Position numbers and translations under genes: made by a program | NCBI GenBank assembly: GCA_964368085.1 | Contig: CAYJBG010000004.1 | Coordinates: 1 to 48,349 of the forward strand | Direction of reading: 5' to 3' | From: an uncultured Acidiferrobacterales bacterium | GTDB taxonomy: Bacteria; Pseudomonadota; Gammaproteobacteria; Acidiferrobacterales; UBA6901 | DNA length: 48,349 bases | Shown: piece by piece, positions 6,148 through 44,080 of the stretch | Numbering within the stretch: position 1 is the first letter of the stretch | Layout of the letters: each line of letters begins with the position of its first letter | Notes under the pieces: model-generated | What the model was told of the DNA's origin: nothing | Databases searched by the model: none | The model's input: only the letters and a program-made list of their open reading frames with translations

Positions 6148-7920
6148 TCAACTGCCCAAGTCCACCGCTTCGCCTATCGCGTTGAGACCATCGCCCCGGT
6201 TATCGGTGTCGCCGAGGCCGAGTTGACCCGAGTTGTTGAATCCCCAGCACTTGACCGCGCCGTCACGTAGTTGGCCGCAGGTGTGGGTTCCGTTCATGGA
6301 TACAGATACATCGAGTGCCGGGGCGTTGCCGAAGAAATCCTGTCCCAAGTCCACCGGTAGCAGGTTGTCGCCCATCTCGGTTTCGCCCGTCGCGTTGAGA
6401 CCATCGCCGCGATTGATCATGTCGCCGAGACCGAGTTGACCGAAATTGTTACCACCCCAGCACTTGAGCAGAGCGGGGCCAGCGACAAGCGGCTCCGCGA
6501 GGCGGGCGCATGTTTGTCTTCCTCCGGCCGCGAGCTGCAACACCGTGAGGCTTCCGAAAAAGCCTGCCGATCCCAAGTCCACCGGTAGCAGGTTGTCGCC
6601 CATCTCGGCTTCGCCCATCGCGTTGAGACCATCGCCGCGATTGATCATGTCGCCGAGACCGAGTTGACCAGCACTATTCAATCCCCAGCACTTGACTCGG
6701 CCGTTGTCGAGGCGGGCGCAGGTATGAGCGCTACCGGCTACAATCTCCACCGCCGTCCGGCTGGAACCTAAATCCACCGGCGGCAGAGTGTCGCCCATCT
6801 CGTCGGGACCATCGCCCCGATTGATCATGTCGCCGAGACCAAGCTGACCAGATTCGTTGAGTCCCCAGCACTTGACCGCGCCGTTGTCGAGGCGGGCGCA
6901 GTTGTGCAGGAGACCCGCGACAAGTTCGACTGCCGTGCGGCCGTTGCCCATATCCACCGGCGGCAGGTTGTCCCCCATCTCGTTGTCGTTGGCGCTATCG
7001 CCTCGCAGGGCGCCGGCGATGCCGAGGCCGAGTTGGCCGAAATTGTTCCATCCCCAGCACTTGACCACACCGTTGTCGAGCCGGGCGCAGGTGTGAACAT
7101 TGCCGGCCACAAGCTGTAACGCCGTGCGGCCGTTGCCTAAGTCCACCGGCGGCAGGTTGTTGCCCATCTCGCTTTGGCCCGTGGCGTTGAGACCATCACC
7201 CCGGGCATCGGTGTCGCCGAGGCCGAGTTGGGCGAAGTTGTTCCATCCCCAGCACTTGACCGCACCGTTGTCGAGCCGGGCACAGGTGTGGAAACTGCCC
7301 GCGACAAGCTGTAACGCCGTGCGGCCGTTGCCTAAATCCACCGGCGGCAGGTTGTTGCCCATCTCGGTTTCGCCCATCGCGTTGAGACCATCGCCCCGAT
7401 TGATCATGTCGCCGAGGCCGAGTTGACCTGAATTGTTGCGTCCCCAGCACTTGACCCGACCGTCATCGAGCCGGGCGCAGGTGTGGACCTCGCCCGCGGC
7501 GATTTTCTTGCCGGTGTTGAAGCGCCAGACGTAATCGGCGGCCAGCGAGTTACCGGCCGTGTCCTGGATCGCGGTGGTGAGGCGCGCGGTGTAGTCGGTA
7601 TTAAAAGCGAGCGCCGCCGAGGGCGTAAAATGCACGGCGTTGTCGACCAGCGCGACGGCACCGTTTACCGGACCGCCCGGTCCAGTAAGCGTGAAGCTCC
7701 CGTCGTTGACGGTGGTCGCATTCAGCGCCTGCGAGAAGACCGCCACGATCGATTGCGTAAGAGCGGCGCCGTTTGCGGTATTGACCGGATTGGTGGCGGT
7801 CACGCTGGGGCCGGGGCCGCCCCCACCCCCGCTACCACCACCGCCACCCCCTCCGCCGCAGCCCCCTACACCCAGCATGGCTACCAGCAAACTCGAATAC
7901 AAAAATAAACGATGTTTCAT
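6148..7920 (-). CDS. Surface lipoprotein: Ig-like (Big_5-type) domain plus 7 RCC1-like repeats
   Basis: Signal peptide ending VGGC followed by poly-Gly; PSVTATNP...Y-x-W-x-F-x-T Ig-like domain; seven HTCA-x5-VKCWG-x-N-x2-GQLGLG-type repeats; start taken at MKHRLF. Confidence 0.85.
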   Translation of the reverse strand: MKHRLFLYSSLLVAMLGVGGCGGGGGGGGSGGGGGPGPSVTATNPVNTANGAALTQSIVAVFSQALNATTVNDGSFTLTGPGGPVNGAVALVDNAVHFTPSAALAFNTDYTARLTTAIQDTAGNSLAADYVWRFNTGKKIAAGEVHTCARLDDGRVKCWGRNNSGQLGLGDMINRGDGLNAMGETEMGNNLPPVDLGNGRTALQLVAGSFHTCARLDNGAVKCWGWNNFAQLGLGDTDARGDGLNATGQSEMGNNLPPVDLGNGRTALQLVAGNVHTCARLDNGVVKCWGWNNFGQLGLGIAGALRGDSANDNEMGDNLPPVDMGNGRTAVELVAGLLHNCARLDNGAVKCWGLNESGQLGLGDMINRGDGPDEMGDTLPPVDLGSSRTAVEIVAGSAHTCARLDNGRVKCWGLNSAGQLGLGDMINRGDGLNAMGEAEMGDNLLPVDLGSAGFFGSLTVLQLAAGGRQTCARLAEPLVAGPALLKCWGGNNFGQLGLGDMINRGDGLNATGETEMGDNLLPVDLGQDFFGNAPALDVSVSMNGTHTCGQLRDGAVKCWGFNNSGQLGLGDTDNRGDGLNAIGEAVDLGS

Positions 7921-9747: not shown

Positions 9748-11577
9748 TCAATACAGATACACCGCGCCGGCTTGGACGGCAGTGTTGTCGTTCTGATCGC
9801 CGTTGATGCCGGTGGCGTTGCTGGCTTCGGTAAAAGCCCCCACTGCCAGGGTGTTGCCGTCGTTATTTAAGGCAAGAGACCAGCCGAAGAAATCGTTCGC
9901 TCCCGTGTTCGAGGCCTTCACATAGGCCTGCTGGTTCCAGGTGGAACCGCTGCGGGTGAACACATACACCGCGCCGGCAAAGGCGGAGTTGTTAACCGTT
10001 TGATCGCCGTCAATCCCGGTGGCGTTGCTGGCTTCGCCAATAGCCCCCACCGCCAGGGTGTTGCCGTCATTGCTTAAGGCAAGTGAGGCGCCAAAGTTAT
10101 CATCCGCCCCCGTATTGGAAGCCTTCACATAGGCCTGTTGGCTCCAGGTAGAGCCGCTGCGGGTGAACACATAGGCCGCGCCGGCACTTGAGGCGGCGTT
10201 ATTAGCCTGATCGCCGTCGATCCCGACGGCGTTGCTGGCTTCTTGAGTAGCCCCCACCGCCAAGGTATTGCCGTCACTGCTTAAGGCGACGGAGGTGCCG
10301 AAGTTATCATTCGCGTCCGTGTTGGAAGCCTTCACGTAAGCCTGTTGGCTCCAGGTGGAGCCGCTGCGGACGAAGACATAGACGGCGCCCGCACGGAAGG
10401 CGGCATTATTCGTCTGATCGCCGTCAATGCCGGTGGTGGTGCTGGCCTCGAACATCGCCCCCACCGCCAGGGTGTTGCCGTCATCGCTTAAGGCCAGGGA
10501 GTTGCCGAATAAGTCATTCGCATTCGTGTTGGAAGCCTTCACATAGGCCTGCTGGCTCCAGGTGGAACCACTGCGGGTGAACACATAGACCGCGCCGGCG
10601 CTCACGGCTGTATTAATAGTCTGATCGCCGTCGATCCCCACGGCGTTGCTGGCTTCGCCAATAGCCCCCACCGCTAGAGTGTTACCGTCATTATTTAAGG
10701 CAAGAGACCAGCCGAAGGAATCACCATTCCCCGTGTTCGAGGCCTTCACATAGGCCTGCTGGCTCCAGGTGGAGCCGCTGCGGGTGAACACATAGACCGC
10801 GCCGGCCGCTACGACGGTATCGTTAGTTTGATCACCGTCGATCCCCGTTGCGTTGCTGGCTTCGGCGCGGGCCCCCACTGCCAGGGTGTTGCCGTCGTCG
10901 CTTAAGGCGAGGGCAATGCCGAATTCGTCACCCCCGTCGGTATTCGAGGCCTTCACATAGGCCTGTTGGCTCCAGGTGGAGCCGCTGCGGGTGAACACAT
11001 ACACCGCGCCGGCAGTGCCGAGCGAGTTGTTATTCGTCTGATCGCCGTCAATGCCTACGGCGTCGCTGGCTTCGTTAGGAGCCCCCACCGCCAGAGTGTT
11101 GCCGTCACTGCTTAAGGCGATAGACCCGCCGAAACGGTCAGCCGCTCCTGTGTTCGAGGCCTTGAAGTAGCCGATGGCCTGAAGCACCGCCCCGGCCGTG
11201 TTGACTTCGTTGGAGTCGGCGCTACAGCCGACGCTATTGCAGGCTTGTACCAGGTAACGGGCATTGGCCCAGTCGTGGCGAAGCACGGACACATCGCGGG
11301 TGGCGTTAATGGCCGTTATATTCCCTCCGACTTGGGTAAAGCCCGAGACCCCGTCGGGATTTTCGAAAAGCCGGTAGTAGCTGGCGCCGCTTACCGCGTT
11401 CCAACTGAACTGCAGTTGTTTCACGCCGAAGCCGATCAAGAGCGCCGGCGCCGAGGAAGGGGCGCTCGTGGGGGCGCTCCCCCCGCCTCCGCCTCCCCCA
11501 CCCCCGCAGGCGGTAAGAAAAAGCATCGACAGCAGTACCAGGAACCCTGTTTTGATGTTTACGGTATTTATGTTCAT
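9748..11577 (-). CDS. FG-GAP/integrin-alpha-like beta-propeller surface lipoprotein
   Basis: Lipobox LTAC plus poly-Gly; FN3-like segment; seven KASNT-x3-D-x-FG-x2-ALS-x-DGNTLAVGA...AGAVYVF repeats. Confidence 0.85.
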   Translation of the reverse strand: MNINTVNIKTGFLVLLSMLFLTACGGGGGGGGGSAPTSAPSSAPALLIGFGVKQLQFSWNAVSGASYYRLFENPDGVSGFTQVGGNITAINATRDVSVLRHDWANARYLVQACNSVGCSADSNEVNTAGAVLQAIGYFKASNTGAADRFGGSIALSSDGNTLAVGAPNEASDAVGIDGDQTNNNSLGTAGAVYVFTRSGSTWSQQAYVKASNTDGGDEFGIALALSDDGNTLAVGARAEASNATGIDGDQTNDTVVAAGAVYVFTRSGSTWSQQAYVKASNTGNGDSFGWSLALNNDGNTLAVGAIGEASNAVGIDGDQTINTAVSAGAVYVFTRSGSTWSQQAYVKASNTNANDLFGNSLALSDDGNTLAVGAMFEASTTTGIDGDQTNNAAFRAGAVYVFVRSGSTWSQQAYVKASNTDANDNFGTSVALSSDGNTLAVGATQEASNAVGIDGDQANNAASSAGAAYVFTRSGSTWSQQAYVKASNTGADDNFGASLALSNDGNTLAVGAIGEASNATGIDGDQTVNNSAFAGAVYVFTRSGSTWNQQAYVKASNTGANDFFGWSLALNNDGNTLAVGAFTEASNATGINGDQNDNTAVQAGAVYLY

Positions 11578-21570: not shown

Positions 21571-21592
21571 GGTGGGATTGATTCCAGTTTAT

Positions 21593-21657
21593 GTCGCCCT
21601 GAAGGGCGACCTACATAAATTTGGTAAATCTTGCTGTAGGTCGCCCTTCAGGGCGAC
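21593..21657. repeat. REP pair left of RAYT
   Basis: GTCGCCCTGAAGGGCGAC-CTAC (21593-21614) and GTAG-GTCGCCCTTCAGGGCGAC (21636-21657). Confidence 0.9.
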
Positions 21658-22109
21658 AACGACAACCAAATGCTGTCCCAATGCGGGTAATCGCCCAAGC
21701 GCTCAACAATACCGGCGCGCAATGGATTCGCCACGACATAACGGGCAATCTCAATTCTGTCCTCCTCGCTGCGCAGAGCATGATCGTGGAAACTTCTTTG
21801 CCAGAAAGGGCCCGTGCGACCAGAATGGGCGTTGATAGCTCGGGCACTTCGACCTTTCAGCTTGTTCATGGCCTCACCAAGAGAACCCGCCCCGCCCAAC
21901 GAAAGTAGCGCATGAAAGTGGTCTGGCATAATCACCCAGGCGAGCCAGGTTGCGACACCTTCATTCTCCAATCGTTGCATCTCTATCGCCAGCAGCCGCG
22001 CGGAATAAAAATCCTTGAACCACGGGATACGCCGGTGTGTAACCGCAGTAACAAGGTATTCGCGCCCTGGCTCCGAATAGCGTCCTTTGCGTAGATTGCT
22101 GTAGGGCAT
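21648..22109 (-). mobile_element. REP-associated tyrosine transposase (RAYT/TnpA-REP, Y1 HUH)
   Basis: LRKGRYS-x-PG-x2-YLVT, VIMPDHFHAL (HUH), FWQRSFHDHALR, YVVANP (catalytic Tyr); flanked by four identical REPs. Confidence 0.93.
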
Positions 22110-22125
22110 CCTTGCCTCGCTTGTT

Positions 22126-22191
22126 GTCGCCCTGAAGGGCGACCTACATAAATCTGGATAAATCTGGTTGTAGGTCGCCCTTCAGGGCGAC
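22126..22191. repeat. REP pair right of RAYT
   Basis: Same 22-mers at 22126-22147 and 22170-22191. Confidence 0.9.
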
Positions 22192-34922: not shown

Positions 34923-35013
34923 CGCGGGAGTATATCAGGCTACCGGCCCCCGGCAGAAACACAGCCGGAATCCCCCGAGTGAACAGGGGCGCGCGAAGGC
35001 GCGCATCGGCTCG

Positions 35014-35092
35014 CCCCCCTCTCCCCCTGGGAGAGGGGATGGGGGTGAGGGCAATCTCCCTCACCCTTTGCCCTCTCCCAAGGGGAGAGGGG
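35014..35092. repeat. CCCTCTCCC/CCCTCACCC palindromic repeat pair
   Basis: CCCCTCTCCCCCTGGGAGAGGGG...GGGGTGAGGG followed by the inverted unit; same family at ~218-276, 43961-43992 and 44039-44073. Confidence 0.7.
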
Positions 35093-35907: not shown

Positions 35908-36588
35908 CTATGGCTTCTTGCGCCCGCGCGTCTGCATGAAGCGCTCCAGCATTTCGCCCGCCCACTTCTGGCTGCCGAGACCGAAGGCCAGCGCCGCGCC
36001 GAAGCAGGCGGCGCCGAACGCAATATAGAAGGCGTTCCTGAGAATCTCGCCGCCGATGTCCATTTGCGCAAGCGCCAGAATCACCACGAAGGACATGATC
36101 GCGTAGCGCGTGAAGCGCCCGAGAATCTCCGCGTCATCCAGGCCCACATTCTTACCATAGGTAATAACGCTCTCGGCCAGCAGGCGGGCAAAGTACAGAC
36201 CGATGGCGATAATCAGCACCGCGACAATCACGTTCGGCACGAACAGCGCCACGCGCCGCAGCAATTCCGACACCACGCCCAGACCAAGAGTATTGAAGGC
36301 GGTGAGCAAGGTAATCAGAATGACCAGCCAGTAGCCGAGCACGCCAAGCACATCGATGGTGGTCATGCGGCTGCCGCCGTTTTTAAGAAAGTCATCCACC
36401 CCGGCTTTCTCGGCGATCACGTTGAAGCGCGCCAGCTTCAGGCCGCGCACAATCGCCCACTGCACGGCCTTGGCAATGAGCCAGCCGAGCACCAGCACAA
36501 TGAGCGCGCCGGTGAGTTTGGGCAGAAACCGGCCGATCTCGACCAGATAGGTGTGCACGGAATCCATAATCAGATTGACCTGATCCAT
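35908..36588 (-). CDS. Conserved TM-helix repeat membrane protein (CmpX/MscS N-terminal-like)
   Basis: RBS GGAGG; two FLP-x-L-x2-A-type repeats; ALAFGLG. Confidence 0.8.
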   Translation of the reverse strand: MDQVNLIMDSVHTYLVEIGRFLPKLTGALIVLVLGWLIAKAVQWAIVRGLKLARFNVIAEKAGVDDFLKNGGSRMTTIDVLGVLGYWLVILITLLTAFNTLGLGVVSELLRRVALFVPNVIVAVLIIAIGLYFARLLAESVITYGKNVGLDDAEILGRFTRYAIMSFVVILALAQMDIGGEILRNAFYIAFGAACFGAALAFGLGSQKWAGEMLERFMQTRGRKKP

Positions 36589-36626
36589 ACTCCCTCCTTG
36601 ATAGCGTGTTGTCACAGGAACGGCGC

Positions 36627-37787
36627 TTACACTACCACAGGCGTCAGTGCGGGCAAGCCGCCGGCGGATGTGGCCGCGCTGCTCCGACCGCCATGGATGG
36701 CGACCGCTTCGGGCTCCTGCCCTCTCGCGGCATTACTCCATCCATGGAGGGCAGAAGTGCCGGCGACCGCCAGGGATGGCGGAAGTGCGGAAAACGCAGG
36801 AGCAGTTTTTCCGCAAACGCAGGAGCAGTTTTCCGGCCGACCGCCTGGGAAGGCGGGAGCGCCGGAGCAGTTTGTCCCCGTAGGGACGGCTTCGCGCTCC
36901 GGCCACGCCTGCCATATCGGCGTACATCCATCCGGCAGCGGCGGCAACGGTCCCAGGTCCATGCGGCAATTTTGCGGGCTGTGGAAATCCGAGCCGCTGG
37001 AGGCAAGCAGACCGTGGTTACGCGCAAGCTGCGCGAAGCGAAACATGTCGTCGCGGCTGTGGCTGCCGGAAACCACTTCGATGGCCGCGCCGCCGGCATC
37101 GCGAAACTCGTTAAGCAGCTTCTTGAGGCGCGTGGCGGTAACCTTGTAGCGTGCCGGGTGCGCCAACACCGCCTGGCCGCCGGCGGCGCGTATCCAGCCG
37201 ATGGCTTCGTCGAGCGTCGCCCACTGTCCCGGCACATGCCCGGGTTTGCCCTGCACCAGAAATTTCTTGAATACGCTGCGCACGTCGGCGGCGTGGCCGG
37301 CGCCCACCAGGAATTGGGCGAAATGGGTGCGACTCACAAGGCCGCGCCGGGCGCGTGCACGTGCACCTTCGATGGCGCCCGCTATGCCGGCCTTGGCCAG
37401 ACGCCGGCCGATCTCCTCGGCGCGCCAGTCGCGGAATTCGCGCAGGCGCGCGAGTCCGGCTTGGAGCGCGGCATTGGCCGTATCGATGTTGAGGCCGAGG
37501 ACATGCACCGTCTGCCCGCCCCGACCGCCATGGATGGCGGAAGTGCCGGAAACGCAGGAGCGGTTTTCCGGCCAGGTGACTGAAATCTCGACCCCCGGCA
37601 CCAGCGTGATGCCGGCCGCATCGGCGGCAGCGCGCGCTTCGGGCAGGCCGTCGGTCACGTCGTGATCGGTGAGCGCCAGCACCTGCACACCGTTGGCCGC
37701 AGCGCGCAACACCAGCTCGGCCGGCGATAAGGCACCATCGGAATAGAACGTGTGGGTATGAAGATCGTAGACAGGCGTCTCGGTCAT
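36627..37787 (-). CDS. yciV: PHP-domain phosphoesterase (YciV/TrpH) carrying in-frame repeat insertions
   Basis: DLHTHT-x2-SDG, LALTDHD, GVEIS, LAHPARY, GSDFH; 17-aa and 73-aa inserts derived from the 51-bp element. Confidence 0.9.
   Translation of the reverse strand: MTETPVYDLHTHTFYSDGALSPAELVLRAAANGVQVLALTDHDVTDGLPEARAAADAAGITLVPGVEISVTWPENRSCVSGTSAIHGGRGGQTVHVLGLNIDTANAALQAGLARLREFRDWRAEEIGRRLAKAGIAGAIEGARARARRGLVSRTHFAQFLVGAGHAADVRSVFKKFLVQGKPGHVPGQWATLDEAIGWIRAAGGQAVLAHPARYKVTATRLKKLLNEFRDAGGAAIEVVSGSHSRDDMFRFAQLARNHGLLASSGSDFHSPQNCRMDLGPLPPLPDGCTPIWQAWPEREAVPTGTNCSGAPAFPGGRPENCSCVCGKTAPAFSALPPSLAVAGTSALHGWSNAARGQEPEAVAIHGGRSSAATSAGGLPALTPVVV
36685..36903. repeat. Nested cluster of 51-bp double-hairpin elements (219 bp) inside the yciV 3' end
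   Basis: Outer A 36685-36837 contains B 36703-36753 (inverted) and a second A 36764-36814; adjacent A-derivative 36838-36903 carries the 24-bp C at 36874-36897. Confidence 0.85.
37522..37572. repeat. Single 51-bp element A inserted in frame in yciV
   Basis: CGACCGCCATGGATGGCGGAAGTGCCGGAAACGCAGGAGCGGTTTTCCGGC splits EISVTW|GGQTVHVLG. Confidence 0.88.
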
Positions 37788-37825
37788 TCGCGTAGACTAC
37801 CACGCCCACGGTCACCGTGCCGCCG

Positions 37826-38002
37826 GCCGGAAAACTGCTTCTGCGTTGCCGGCACTTCTGCCCTCCATGGATGGAGTAATGCCGCGTGAGGGCAGGAGCC
37901 CGAAGCGGCCGCCATCCATGGCGGTCGGCAGAAAAACCGCTCCTGCGTTTGTCCCCGTAGGGACGGCTTCGCGCTCGGCACTTCCGCCATCCATGGCGGT
38001 CG
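37826..38002. repeat. Inverted nested cluster (177 bp) in the yciV/yciB divergent intergenic region
   Basis: A+B 37826-37927 (102 bp; B at 37859-37909) and A+C 37928-38002 (75 bp; C at 37951-37974). Confidence 0.85.
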
Positions 38003-38058
38003 CGTTGCCCGTGTGAGGCATTAATGCGAAAATGCCGGTCCATTCCCGGATGTCGCCA

Positions 38059-38631
38059 ATGAAATTCCTGTTCGACCTGTTCCCCCTGCTGCTGTTTTTC
38101 GCCGCCTTCCGGCTGTACGACATCTATGTCGCCACGGGCGTGGCGATCGTCGCCTCGTTCGCGCAGGTCGGCATCTACTGGTGGCGGCAGCGCAAGTTCG
38201 AGACCATGCACCTCATCACGCTCGCCGTGATCGTGGTGTTCGGCGGCCTCACCATCGCCCTGCACAGCGACGTCTTTATAAAATGGAAACCCACCATCCT
38301 CTACTGGATATTCGCCGCGCTGGTGTTGGGCAGCCAATTCGTCGGCGCCAAGACCGTCATGCAGCGTCTGCTCGGCGGCAAAATAGAACTCGATGCGCGC
38401 TTGTGGCGGCACTATAACCTGAGCTGGGGCCTGTTCTTCGTCGTGGCCGGCGCGCTCAACGTGTATGTGGCGTTTTATCACGGTCTCGACCAGACCGAAG
38501 CGGTGCGCCAGGCGACCTGGGTAAACTTCAAGGTGTTCGGCCTGCTCGGTCTCACTTTTGTCTTTGCCATGGTGCAGGCGCTCATTGTGGCGCGCCACAT
38601 GAAAGACCCGACCGACAAGGAGCTATCCTGA
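38059..38631 (+). CDS. yciB: Inner membrane septation protein
   Basis: [29 protein letters not shown]. Confidence 0.95.
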
Positions 38632-43960: not shown

Positions 43961-44073
43961 CCCTCACCCTAGCCCTCTCCCTGAGGGAGAGGAAACAAAA
44001 GGGCGGTGCGCAAGCGCACCCTACACTGGCAACTGCGGCCCTCACCCCAACCCCTCTCCCGGAGGGAGAGGGG
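43961..44073. repeat. Two CCCTCACCC..CCCTCTCCC units bracketing a GGTGCGCAAGCGCACC-CTAC REP
   Basis: Units at 43961-43992, 44005-44024 and 44039-44073; a REP relative lies at ~17360-17379. Confidence 0.65.
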
Positions 44074-44080
44074 AAAGAAA

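Follow-up and report, generated by a model that had tools for sequence, protein, structure and literature searches.

A 51-bp two-hairpin repeat that nests in its own copies and occurs in protein-coding genes of an uncultured Acidiferrobacterales bacterium

The window analyzed here is a 48,349-nt stretch of contig CAYJBG010000004.1 (contig C4 of the assembly that we call G000) from an uncultured Acidiferrobacterales bacterium. It carries six copies of a 51-bp repeat, element A, several of them interrupted by one another or by companion modules and some lying within the reading frame of the gene yciV. Comparison with related genomes shows that A has moved over evolutionary time, its ends being exact and its targets not duplicated. 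The reading we favor, with moderate confidence, is that A is a small, nonautonomous, noncoding mobile element of the kind represented by repetitive extragenic palindromes (REPs) and Rickettsia palindromic elements (RPEs), which would be recognized through two folded hairpins and moved in trans. An earlier note, drawn from the letters of the window, had likewise proposed a mobile family that tolerates coding sequence, and the 14 empty alleles, 16 in-frame insertions, and 11 C-terminal tails described below bear this out.

The source assembly is a 2.37-Mb bin of 275 contigs with a GC content of 61% and a completeness of 79%, and its nearest named relatives are Acidiferrobacterales metagenome-assembled genomes (MAGs). 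Copies were counted with the 24-mer of the first hairpin of A at up to two mismatches, the reversed sequence serving as a control, and clusters were mapped by BLAST with six composite forms of A and its modules. Repeat scans at k=13 were dominated by GC-rich coding repeats and were not used. Forty-one relatives were compared for A and for the transposase domains Y1_Tnp and Y2_Tnp.

Structure of element A

Element A consists of two hairpins. Hairpin 1, near the 5' end, is CCGCCA-TGGA-TGGCGG, with a 6-bp stem after CGAC, a tetranucleotide that precedes it in 67 of the 75 whole copies of A in G000; hairpin 1 and the following GAAGTGC are nearly invariant in sequence. Hairpin 2, CCGGAAAACGC-AGGA-GCGGTTTTCCGG, occupies the 3' end. 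The two ends of the element, CGACCGCC... and ...TTTTCCGGC, are not inverted repeats of each other. Folded as single-stranded DNA, A reaches -18.8 kcal/mol, compared to -7.9 ± 2.0 kcal/mol for shuffled sequences (z of -5.5), and none of 200 shuffles folded as well.

The second hairpin is maintained by pairing. In an alignment of 58 distinct copies from many genomes, in which hairpin 1 is invariant through the way the copies were found, hairpin 2 keeps its GCAGGAGC loop and its stem varies by paired substitutions: two-sided changes are seen at 8 of 9 pairs, the 112 two-sided changed cells exceed the 42.7 ± 4.4 of shuffled alignments (0 of 500 as many), and 92% of cells are paired, compared to 27 to 57% when the partner is slid. 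Within G000, positions 26/49 and 28/47 of A covary. Structural constraint is shown to act on both hairpins. A scan of positions 36500-38100 against Rfam returned no family at an E value of 1 or below.

Gain and loss of copies between relatives

At 14 sites a clean empty allele exists in relatives of the same genus, and target duplication was found at none of them, as had been surmised from the window. The joints show only one or two ambiguous repeated bases or a prior likeness of the target to the end of the element. This count omits PdxA and C81:6349, where the insert is absent in relatives and the junction is not cleanly alignable; C90:2026 and C90:6362, whose flanks are too diverged; and the C38 clusters, which have no usable flank matches.

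Empty orthologues at the nucleotide level were found for six host genes, encoding YciV, PrlC, DinB, aldehyde dehydrogenase, NadE, and RibE. The 51-bp copy inside yciV corresponds to an exact gap in relative L002 (79% protein identity) and is present in relative L001 (86%), and a co-occurring strain of about 92% identity, found in runs X1 and X2 of two studies, skips positions 36667-36902 and has 16 other letters in their place. The 75-bp insert of PrlC and the 102-bp tandem insert of DinB are unique to G000 among relatives having the gene, with clean nucleotide gaps in five and four of these, respectively. The 126-bp insert of the aldehyde dehydrogenase is missing from G004, G001, and G003; the NadE copy is common to G003 and missing from G004, G002, G001, and G006; and the RibE copy is missing from G003. 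Intergenic empty alleles were found for C12:9170, C12:9413, C12:13120, C90:4198, C90:5468, C81:5803, and C81:7023.

At two of these sites the cluster has grown in place. C12:13120 is empty in G003 and holds A.A in G000 and A.A[C] in G002 (the brackets marking a module, here C, nested within A), the last two differing by C alone. C90:5468 is empty in G002 and G004, holds one 66-nt variant in G003, and holds A and A[B] in G000.

Companion modules and nesting points

Smaller or diverged modules sit within A at fixed points. Module B was found after A position 18/19, always inverted, in 42 of its 43 copies in G000, the remaining one lying at the matching place of a hybrid relative, and module C was found at CTGCGTTT^..^YCCGCACT, which is A position 28^29, in 66 of 67. 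An alternative to C, the 39-bp module C', has a 23-nt hairpin in place of the eight inner bases of C. A third nesting point, CCATG^GATGG in the loop of hairpin 1, is used by a related unit and by a 23-nt hairpin. No copy of B or C was found outside A-type hosts in G000, and tandem arrays of A are common there; the preference for its own copies that the window had suggested is therefore seen across the genome.

When folded as single-stranded DNA, A[B] forms a single long hairpin (z of -4.05). The composites have expanded in G000, with 43 A[B] and 67 A[C] copies compared to at most 3 and 6 junctions, respectively, in any of four genomes of the same genus, which agrees with the earlier suggestion that composites move as units. 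That suggestion is incomplete: modules are also gained or lost singly, because 11 of the 12 combinations of B (present or absent), guest (none, C, or C'), and hairpin 2 (two covarying types) exist and because one orthologous copy differs by C only.

In many other genomes, A lies within the loop of a different hairpin (...CATC^[A]^CTG...) or is placed between other small-repeat modules, which makes nesting a trait of the class as a whole. Within the window, positions 34999-35080 and 43973-44074 belong to another palindromic family (CCCTCTCCC..GGGAGAGGG, often with CCCTCACCC) that is common in the genome and hosts A and related units, for example at C9:20904-21099. At C81:7023-7097 of G000 and in L333, A[C] lies within a further small repeat (..ATGGCTNNTTTTGTG^CAGGCNTGC..), which hosts about ten copies of A; the orthologous place in G003 has three tandem copies of this repeat without A.

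Target sites and a possible origin by copying errors

A shows a preference for C C K G on the left (54, 44, 58, and 55 of 82 flanks at the four positions) and for a starting C on the right (70 of 84), and about half of the verified empty sites have CCGG, CCTG, or CCGC at their end.

A serious rival to a mobile element, although one that we hold to be fairly improbable, needs no transposase and has copies arising from replication or repair errors at hairpins, whether by template switching, microhomology-mediated copying, or unequal crossing-over. Some targets do resemble the 5' end of A (DinB CAACCGCCAGCAC, PrlC CGCCGACCGG, NadE CGAC, and RibE CTCGACCGCCGTG), and of 111 rebuilt empty sites, 19 hold a look-alike of hairpin 1 with at least 12 of 19 matches, a modest excess over the 8.8% of 20,000 control sites. 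The abundance of tandem arrays, the near-complete set of module combinations, as expected from recombination between copies, and an enzyme search that gave none point the same way. Nevertheless, the other 92 rebuilt empty sites are without a look-alike, copies with unrelated flanks have identical ends, and permuted units were not seen. The single fixed points of B and C argue for recognition rather than accident, and bursts differ strongly between close genomes.

Insertions in protein-coding genes

Coding was judged by a codon-usage score trained on long open reading frames (ORFs) for the 123 clusters that are not too near contig ends. Sixteen of these lie in frame within a gene, 56 adjoin coding sequence on one side only, 47 adjoin it on neither, and 4 lie between or across frames of the same strand. 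All 16 host ORFs have Pfam families, with the domain often spanning the insert; they encode an aldehyde dehydrogenase, GlnD, a halogenase-like flavoprotein, a glycosyltransferase, DinB, PrlC, an M23 peptidase, RibE, SucB, NadE, PdxA, a DUF3426 protein, GltB, a GGDEF-HD protein, CtaG, and YciV. Copies in genes occur in both orientations, and all six frames are used. In addition, 11 of 20 clusters 3' of a coding flank are wholly read through by the upstream ORF and form C-terminal tails, and coding sequence holds at least 22% of the assessable clusters (27 of 123). An Endozoicomonas MAG also has a copy in frame, in an ORF that resembles phosphomannomutase (named by eye and not scanned), and that copy is still 51 nt long despite an extra base in a loop.

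The one-sided clusters comprise 36 upstream and 20 downstream of genes, with no preference for the 3' side. Bacterial genomes are about 85 to 90% coding, and because random insertion would place far more copies in genes, A is filtered out of them; this filtering is much less strict than that for classical REPs.

Copy number, unit lengths, and open frames

The earlier note had allowed that the genome might hold no other copies, which is not so: the hairpin-1 24-mer has 111 matches in G000 and none for the reversed control, and hairpin-1 16-mers occur 121 times in the assembly. There are 75 uninterrupted 51-nt copies with at most eight substitutions from the consensus and 165 clusters amounting to 14.4 kb in total. 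The true number of clusters is higher, because 36 of them lie at or near contig ends. A census of the loop motif gave 80 matches, 73 of which have the stem of A and are mainly uninterrupted copies; the reversed genome gave none. This census has little bearing on the family at large.

Pairing of left and right arms yielded 120 units, with lengths of 51 bp (55 units), 75 bp (25), 90 bp (5), 99 bp (1), 102 bp (6), 126 bp (17), and 141 bp (6) and one each of 50, 76, 89, 127, and 130 bp, the last representing mispaired arms in the nested cluster of the window and not a genuine unit. Unit sizes are sums of the modules A (51), B (51), C (24), and C' (39), and 115 of the 120 are multiples of three. 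The exceptions in G000 are variants of plus or minus 1 nt (GCAGGGAGC), 52-nt variants, a 50-nt copy, and a 50-nt guest or an 11-nt duplication in the loop of hairpin 1. Divisibility by three is a strong tendency and not the rule that had been read from the window.

The absence of stop codons in all six frames that had been reported for A was seen in 54 of its 55 51-nt units and does not extend to the modules, since the window copies of B and C have four and five open frames, respectively, and most composites carry a stop in at least one frame. Nor is six-frame openness rare for a 51-mer: 7.4% of shuffled sequences and 13.6% of genomic 51-mers have it.

Distribution across genomes

Close relatives differ strongly in their load of A. 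The hairpin-1 counts are 111 in G000, 57 in G003, 45 in G004, 11 in G002, and 1 in G001, and A occurs in 14 of the 41 relatives, including all 4 of its own genus, and in none of the 6 searched from a sister genus. The exact hairpin-1 24-mer was found in at least 102 stretches from many gammaproteobacterial genera. Carriers among the matches listed include named strains of Marinobacter, Saccharospirillum, Microbulbifer, Halopseudomonas, and Salinicola and MAGs labeled Endozoicomonas, Sedimenticola, "Ca. Spongiihabitans," Arenimonas, Nevskiaceae, Steroidobacter, and Woeseiaceae; the five genomes examined have 2 to 35 copies each. Among named strains, Marinobacter nauticus gave 4 matches and Saccharospirillum salsuginis 17. 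The plasmid collection gave no match to A, and the whole collection of viral contigs gave one exact match.

Such wide conservation would also be expected if the hairpins were working sites of the host, binding a protein or acting as RNA structures, with their spread being secondary, and the conserved loop above a covarying stem in hairpin 2 and the many copies near gene starts and ends fit this as well. We consider it very unlikely, given copy numbers that range from 0 to 111 among close relatives, the occurrence of both orientations and six frames inside unrelated genes, orthologous sites that are empty in sister genomes, and the lack of a matching Rfam family.

One further carrier is the end of a 949-kb contig of a MAG labeled Actinomycetes (L036:520-650), where nested and tandem copies of A adjoin what appears by eye to be a gene for a Nudix (RppH-like) hydrolase; this contig end may be chimeric or mislabeled.

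A proposed mode of movement

If A is a nonautonomous element moved in trans, as we favor, a trans-acting enzyme would cut it exactly at its ends and paste it without duplicating the target. Hairpin 1 has a near-fixed sequence, and of hairpin 2 only the pairing and the GCAGGAGC loop would be needed. The kind of enzyme known to leave footprints of this sort, with exact ends and no duplication, is the HUH enzyme, and the likeliest candidate would be an enzyme acting on folded single strands, such as an HUH transposase of the Y1 or Y2 type. Precise excision may also occur, as the pattern at C12:13120 suggests. The preferred targets would be weak CCKG^C sites and, in addition, fixed points in hairpins of the same family, at their feet and in their loops, from which tandems and nests would result. 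B, C, and C' would be companion modules that live only within A, and the composites A[C], A[B], and A[B][C] would then be copied as units.

The lengths of 51, 51, 24, and 39 bp and the open frames of A would, on this model, reflect selection on the lineage of the element and not a mechanism that measures length. Because the genome is mostly coding, only stop-free variants with lengths divisible by three would survive in genes, and these would gain a wider habitat. Such lengths may then be a property of the lineage that burst here, for which selection is the simplest explanation. In proteins, the outcome would be short insertions in loops or tails, rich in Gly, Ala, Pro, and Ser.

A bolder possibility, which we put forward only tentatively, is that A, B, C, and their kin represent a previously undescribed class of "hairpin-homing" elements that spans gammaproteobacterial orders and has become codon neutral in the lineage of G000. 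An enzyme that reads loops, possibly a host protein, would recognize CAKGGATG and GCAGGAGC on folded strands and paste the element into the loops or feet of hairpins of its own family. If this is true, codon-neutral A could colonize coding DNA widely and reshape dozens of housekeeping proteins.

The search for a mobilizing enzyme

Several observations weigh against the view that A is an element moved in trans and held to codon-neutral lengths by selection. Of 75 copies in other genomes, 36 have hairpin 2 closing at nt 50 and 31 have it closing at nt 51, and tandem copies have a period of 50 in L046, compared to 51 in L099, G004, G006, and G011. The independent lengths behind the argument are few (51, 24, 39, and 39, the 51 of B being owed to descent), and for that reason chance could have produced the multiples of three at the 1% level. 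The CCKG^C target motif is weak (54 to 71% per left-flank position). The two hairpins of A are unlike each other, in contrast to the paired ends of IS200/IS605 elements, and no obvious orientation pattern by replichore was seen by eye among 35 copies of one complete chromosome whose origin is unmapped.

The earlier note had left the mobilizer unnamed, and genes searched here likewise show no link to A. None of the six Y1_Tnp genes of G000, which resemble REP-associated tyrosine transposases (RAYTs), has motifs of A within its 900-nt flanks, and one genome with 10 A-like copies gave no match to Y1_Tnp. Clustering of neighboring genes at 80 loci of other genomes found no family that recurs broadly, yielding only an ABC-transporter ATPase at seven related loci, and no long element bounded by arms of A was found in G000, where unpaired arms are explained by contig ends or mismatches. 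The gene may lie outside the assembly, because the latter is 79% complete and broken at these very repeats.

Nor was a link to A found for an IS91-type mobilizer. The sole Y2_Tnp gene of G000 (C41:9822-10496) is without A-like ends, and the match between Y2_Tnp and the A-rich genomes G000, G003, G004, and G006 is not supported over the 41 relatives, of which 5 of 14 with A and 6 of 27 without it have the domain. Toward its C terminus, the 526-residue Y2_Tnp ORF itself carries a related two-hairpin unit in frame, at C41:9719-9770.

We also regard as unlikely the proposal that A is an ordinary family of REPs, or of REP doublets forming hairpins (REPINs), moved by a RAYT of the genome itself, a Y1 enzyme of the HUH group. 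Its appeal is plain: G000 has six Y1_Tnp genes, the A-rich relatives G003, G004, and G006 have 10, 5, and 7 where G001 and G002 have 1 each, A[B] pairs two hairpin-1 units in inverted orientation and folds as one long hairpin much as a REPIN does, the ends are exact and the target is not duplicated, and intragenic REPs are among those described in PMC3733652. However, the six RAYT genes are flanked by classical palindromes of the GTAG type or other repeats of their own and none by A, hairpin 1 has CGAC at its 5' side and not GTAG or CGTC, and the profiles of Y1_Tnp (35 of 41 relatives) and A (14 of 41) do not match, quite apart from the A-bearing genome in which Y1_Tnp had no match.

One such gene lies in the window itself: a RAYT-like Y1_Tnp gene at 21735-22058 on the minus strand, with 67-nt inverted doublets of a GTAG-type palindrome (GTAGGTCGCCCTTCAGGGCGAC) on both sides. 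This stretch, 21592-22191, is a classical REPIN-RAYT unit unrelated to A.

Relation to known repeat families

Among the closest parallels are the RPEs, palindromic repeats that lie in frame in many unrelated genes, are translated, and are without a transposase of their own (PMC10969869, PMC3733652). Element A is likewise palindromic, is found in frame in 16 unrelated genes, and has no transposase of its own. RPEs are described as being about 150 bp long and confined to Rickettsia (PMC10969869); going by these descriptions, A differs in being 51 bp long, in having two unlike hairpins, in nesting in itself at fixed points, and in living in free-living Gammaproteobacteria.

With REPs and REPINs A shares short GC-rich hairpins, high copy number, inverted pairs, exact ends, and presence or absence between strains. 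It lacks the REP tag, defined as an unpaired GTAG or CGTC at one end of the palindrome (PMC3733652), and was found beside no RAYT gene of G000, and it differs further in its second hairpin with a conserved loop, in having at least 22% of its clusters in coding sequence, and in showing no 3'-side preference. A[B] would qualify as a doublet of the REPIN type, but single A (55 of 120 units) and head-to-tail tandems are as common. Intragenic REPs of the GTAG/CGTC type are described in Opitutus, Rickettsia, and Thioalkalivibrio, as are REPs within other palindromes (PMC3733652). The CGTC REPs of Di Nocera (2013) are described as having no dedicated transposase, as including intragenic units, and as lying inside longer palindromes in one species, with stems of 8 to 9 bp that start with A/T pairs, loops of 4 to 5 nt, a CCA tail, and a mainly alphaproteobacterial distribution (PMC3733652). 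The hairpins that host A in other genomes frequently terminate in ...GACGG (CCGTC when read on the opposite strand), but hairpin 1 of A, with its 6-bp stem after CGAC, departs from that description.

Other small elements fit less well. A does not have the terminal inverted repeats and target duplication of classical miniature inverted-repeat transposable elements moved by DDE enzymes, nor is there in G000 a Y2 gene whose element ends match A, as IS91 or rolling-circle movement would require. Miniatures of IS200/IS605 elements, among them the palindrome-associated transposable elements (PATEs), have hairpins near both ends, no terminal inverted repeats or target duplication, and a short motif and may be lost precisely. 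A resembles them in its exact ends, subterminal hairpins, and absence of target duplication; unlike in those miniatures, its hairpins differ, its motif is weak, no TnpA is linked to it, and no strand bias was seen. The small dispersed repeats of cyanobacteria of Elhai et al. (2008) reportedly insert into one another; they are said to be of another phylum and of other sequences, with units shorter than A.

Topical literature searches, whose scope excluded non-open journals, found no description of the family, and the supplements of PMC3733652 on intragenic REPs might bear on priority; full-text literature searches for the hairpin sequence and the encoded peptides gave no match. Four features appear to be new: a two-hairpin unit in which one hairpin is fixed and the other covaries, a fixed grammar of nesting with companion modules found only inside A, a spread over many gammaproteobacterial orders, and a codon-neutral set of modules in the lineage of the burst.

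Intragenic small palindromic repeats have been described mostly in Rickettsia and in a small number of REP families, and their mode of movement is unsolved where a transposase is lacking. For A, the search for a mobilizing activity is testable because the ends are sharp, the nesting points are fixed, the hairpin is shared by cultured genera, and recent bursts differ from one sister genome to another. The family is also a natural experiment on the tolerance of proteins for insertions of 17 to 42 residues, and it bears on whether selection can make a selfish element codon neutral. Those who annotate MAGs should be aware of such repeats, which break short-read assemblies and inflate ORFs.

Copies in the window and the yciV gene

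The features of the nested region are collected in Table 1. Rereading of the sequence confirmed the places and nested layout of A, B, and C given in the earlier note, together with its block lengths of 153, 66, 51, 102, and 75 bp and the 9-bp deletion in one copy; excising 36703-36753 and 36764-36814 from the outer A does restore a clean copy of 51 nt. The two A[B] composites, which are in inverted orientation, are 96% complementary over 84 nt.

Table 1. Nested repeat copies and the gene yciV in the window
Feature	Position	Strand	Remarks
yciV (trpH; PHP-domain 5'-3' exoribonuclease family)	36627..37787	-	PF02811; homologues 2yb1, 7ug9
Outer A	36685..36837	+	Split into 18+10+23 nt by two guests; 153-bp nest within the 3' end of the yciV frame
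B (51 bp)	36703..36753	-	Diverged two-hairpin relative of A, inverted, after A position 18/19
Whole inner A	36764..36814	+	At outer A position 28^29, the 5' foot of hairpin 2
A minus 9 nt, carrying C	36838..36903	+	66 bp in total
C (24 bp)	36874..36897	+	At the mirror-image site of hairpin 2, AGCAGTTT^..^TCCGGC; sole exception among 67 C copies
A (51 bp)	37522..37572	+	Clean copy; lengthens YciV in frame by 17 residues
A[B] composite (102 bp)	37826..37927	-	In the yciV-yciB intergenic region
B within reverse A	37859..37909	+	Guest of the composite at 37826..37927
A[C] composite (75 bp)	37928..38002	-	75-bp class, 25 copies in G000
C at its usual site	37951..37974	-	CTGCGTTT^..^YCCGCACT, the site of 66 of 67 copies

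The yciV gene hosts one internal insertion and a C-terminal nest. The 219-bp nest at 36685-36903 had been labeled intergenic, which is wrong, because the yciV frame reads through it to the same stop as that of L002; the point made at the time, that intergenic clusters too have lengths divisible by three, is partly wrong for this reason. YciV has 386 residues, compared to 292 in L002. Alignment with the solved homologue 2yb1_A leaves a clean gap opposite its 17 internal residues, with a conserved segment on either side, and gives no counterpart for its last 88 residues. In L001, the closest named relative, a different nest follows yciV at 2385-2700, with related units whose loops are CATGGATG and CAGGGATG, and the yciV frame terminates within it. 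The 3' end of yciV is a recurrent landing place.

That such nests are artefacts of assembling a short-read metagenome bin, as the earlier note had allowed, is practically excluded. The same classes of composite are found between different unique flanks, 5 to 25 times apiece; composites leave the frames of known genes open; relative G002 (10 contigs) has a triple nest within a long contig; and junctions of unique DNA with the repeats are present in Logan contigs of independent runs from different studies. What speaks for an artefact is that 36 of the 165 clusters are near contig ends and that the Logan contigs, which confirm the junctions, are too short to span the whole nest or to show its inner order; stretches that they leave uncovered carry no weight either way. 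An apparent artefact of sequencing or assembly is found elsewhere in G000, where a run of about 49 G residues lies at a contig end (C17:23612-23660).

In another part of the window, positions 6390-7416 and 9914-11001 hold two sets of near-identical stretches of 40 nt and 53 nt, the spacings of the 53-nt stretches being multiples of 207 nt; both sets look like modules of tandem repeats within a large gene.

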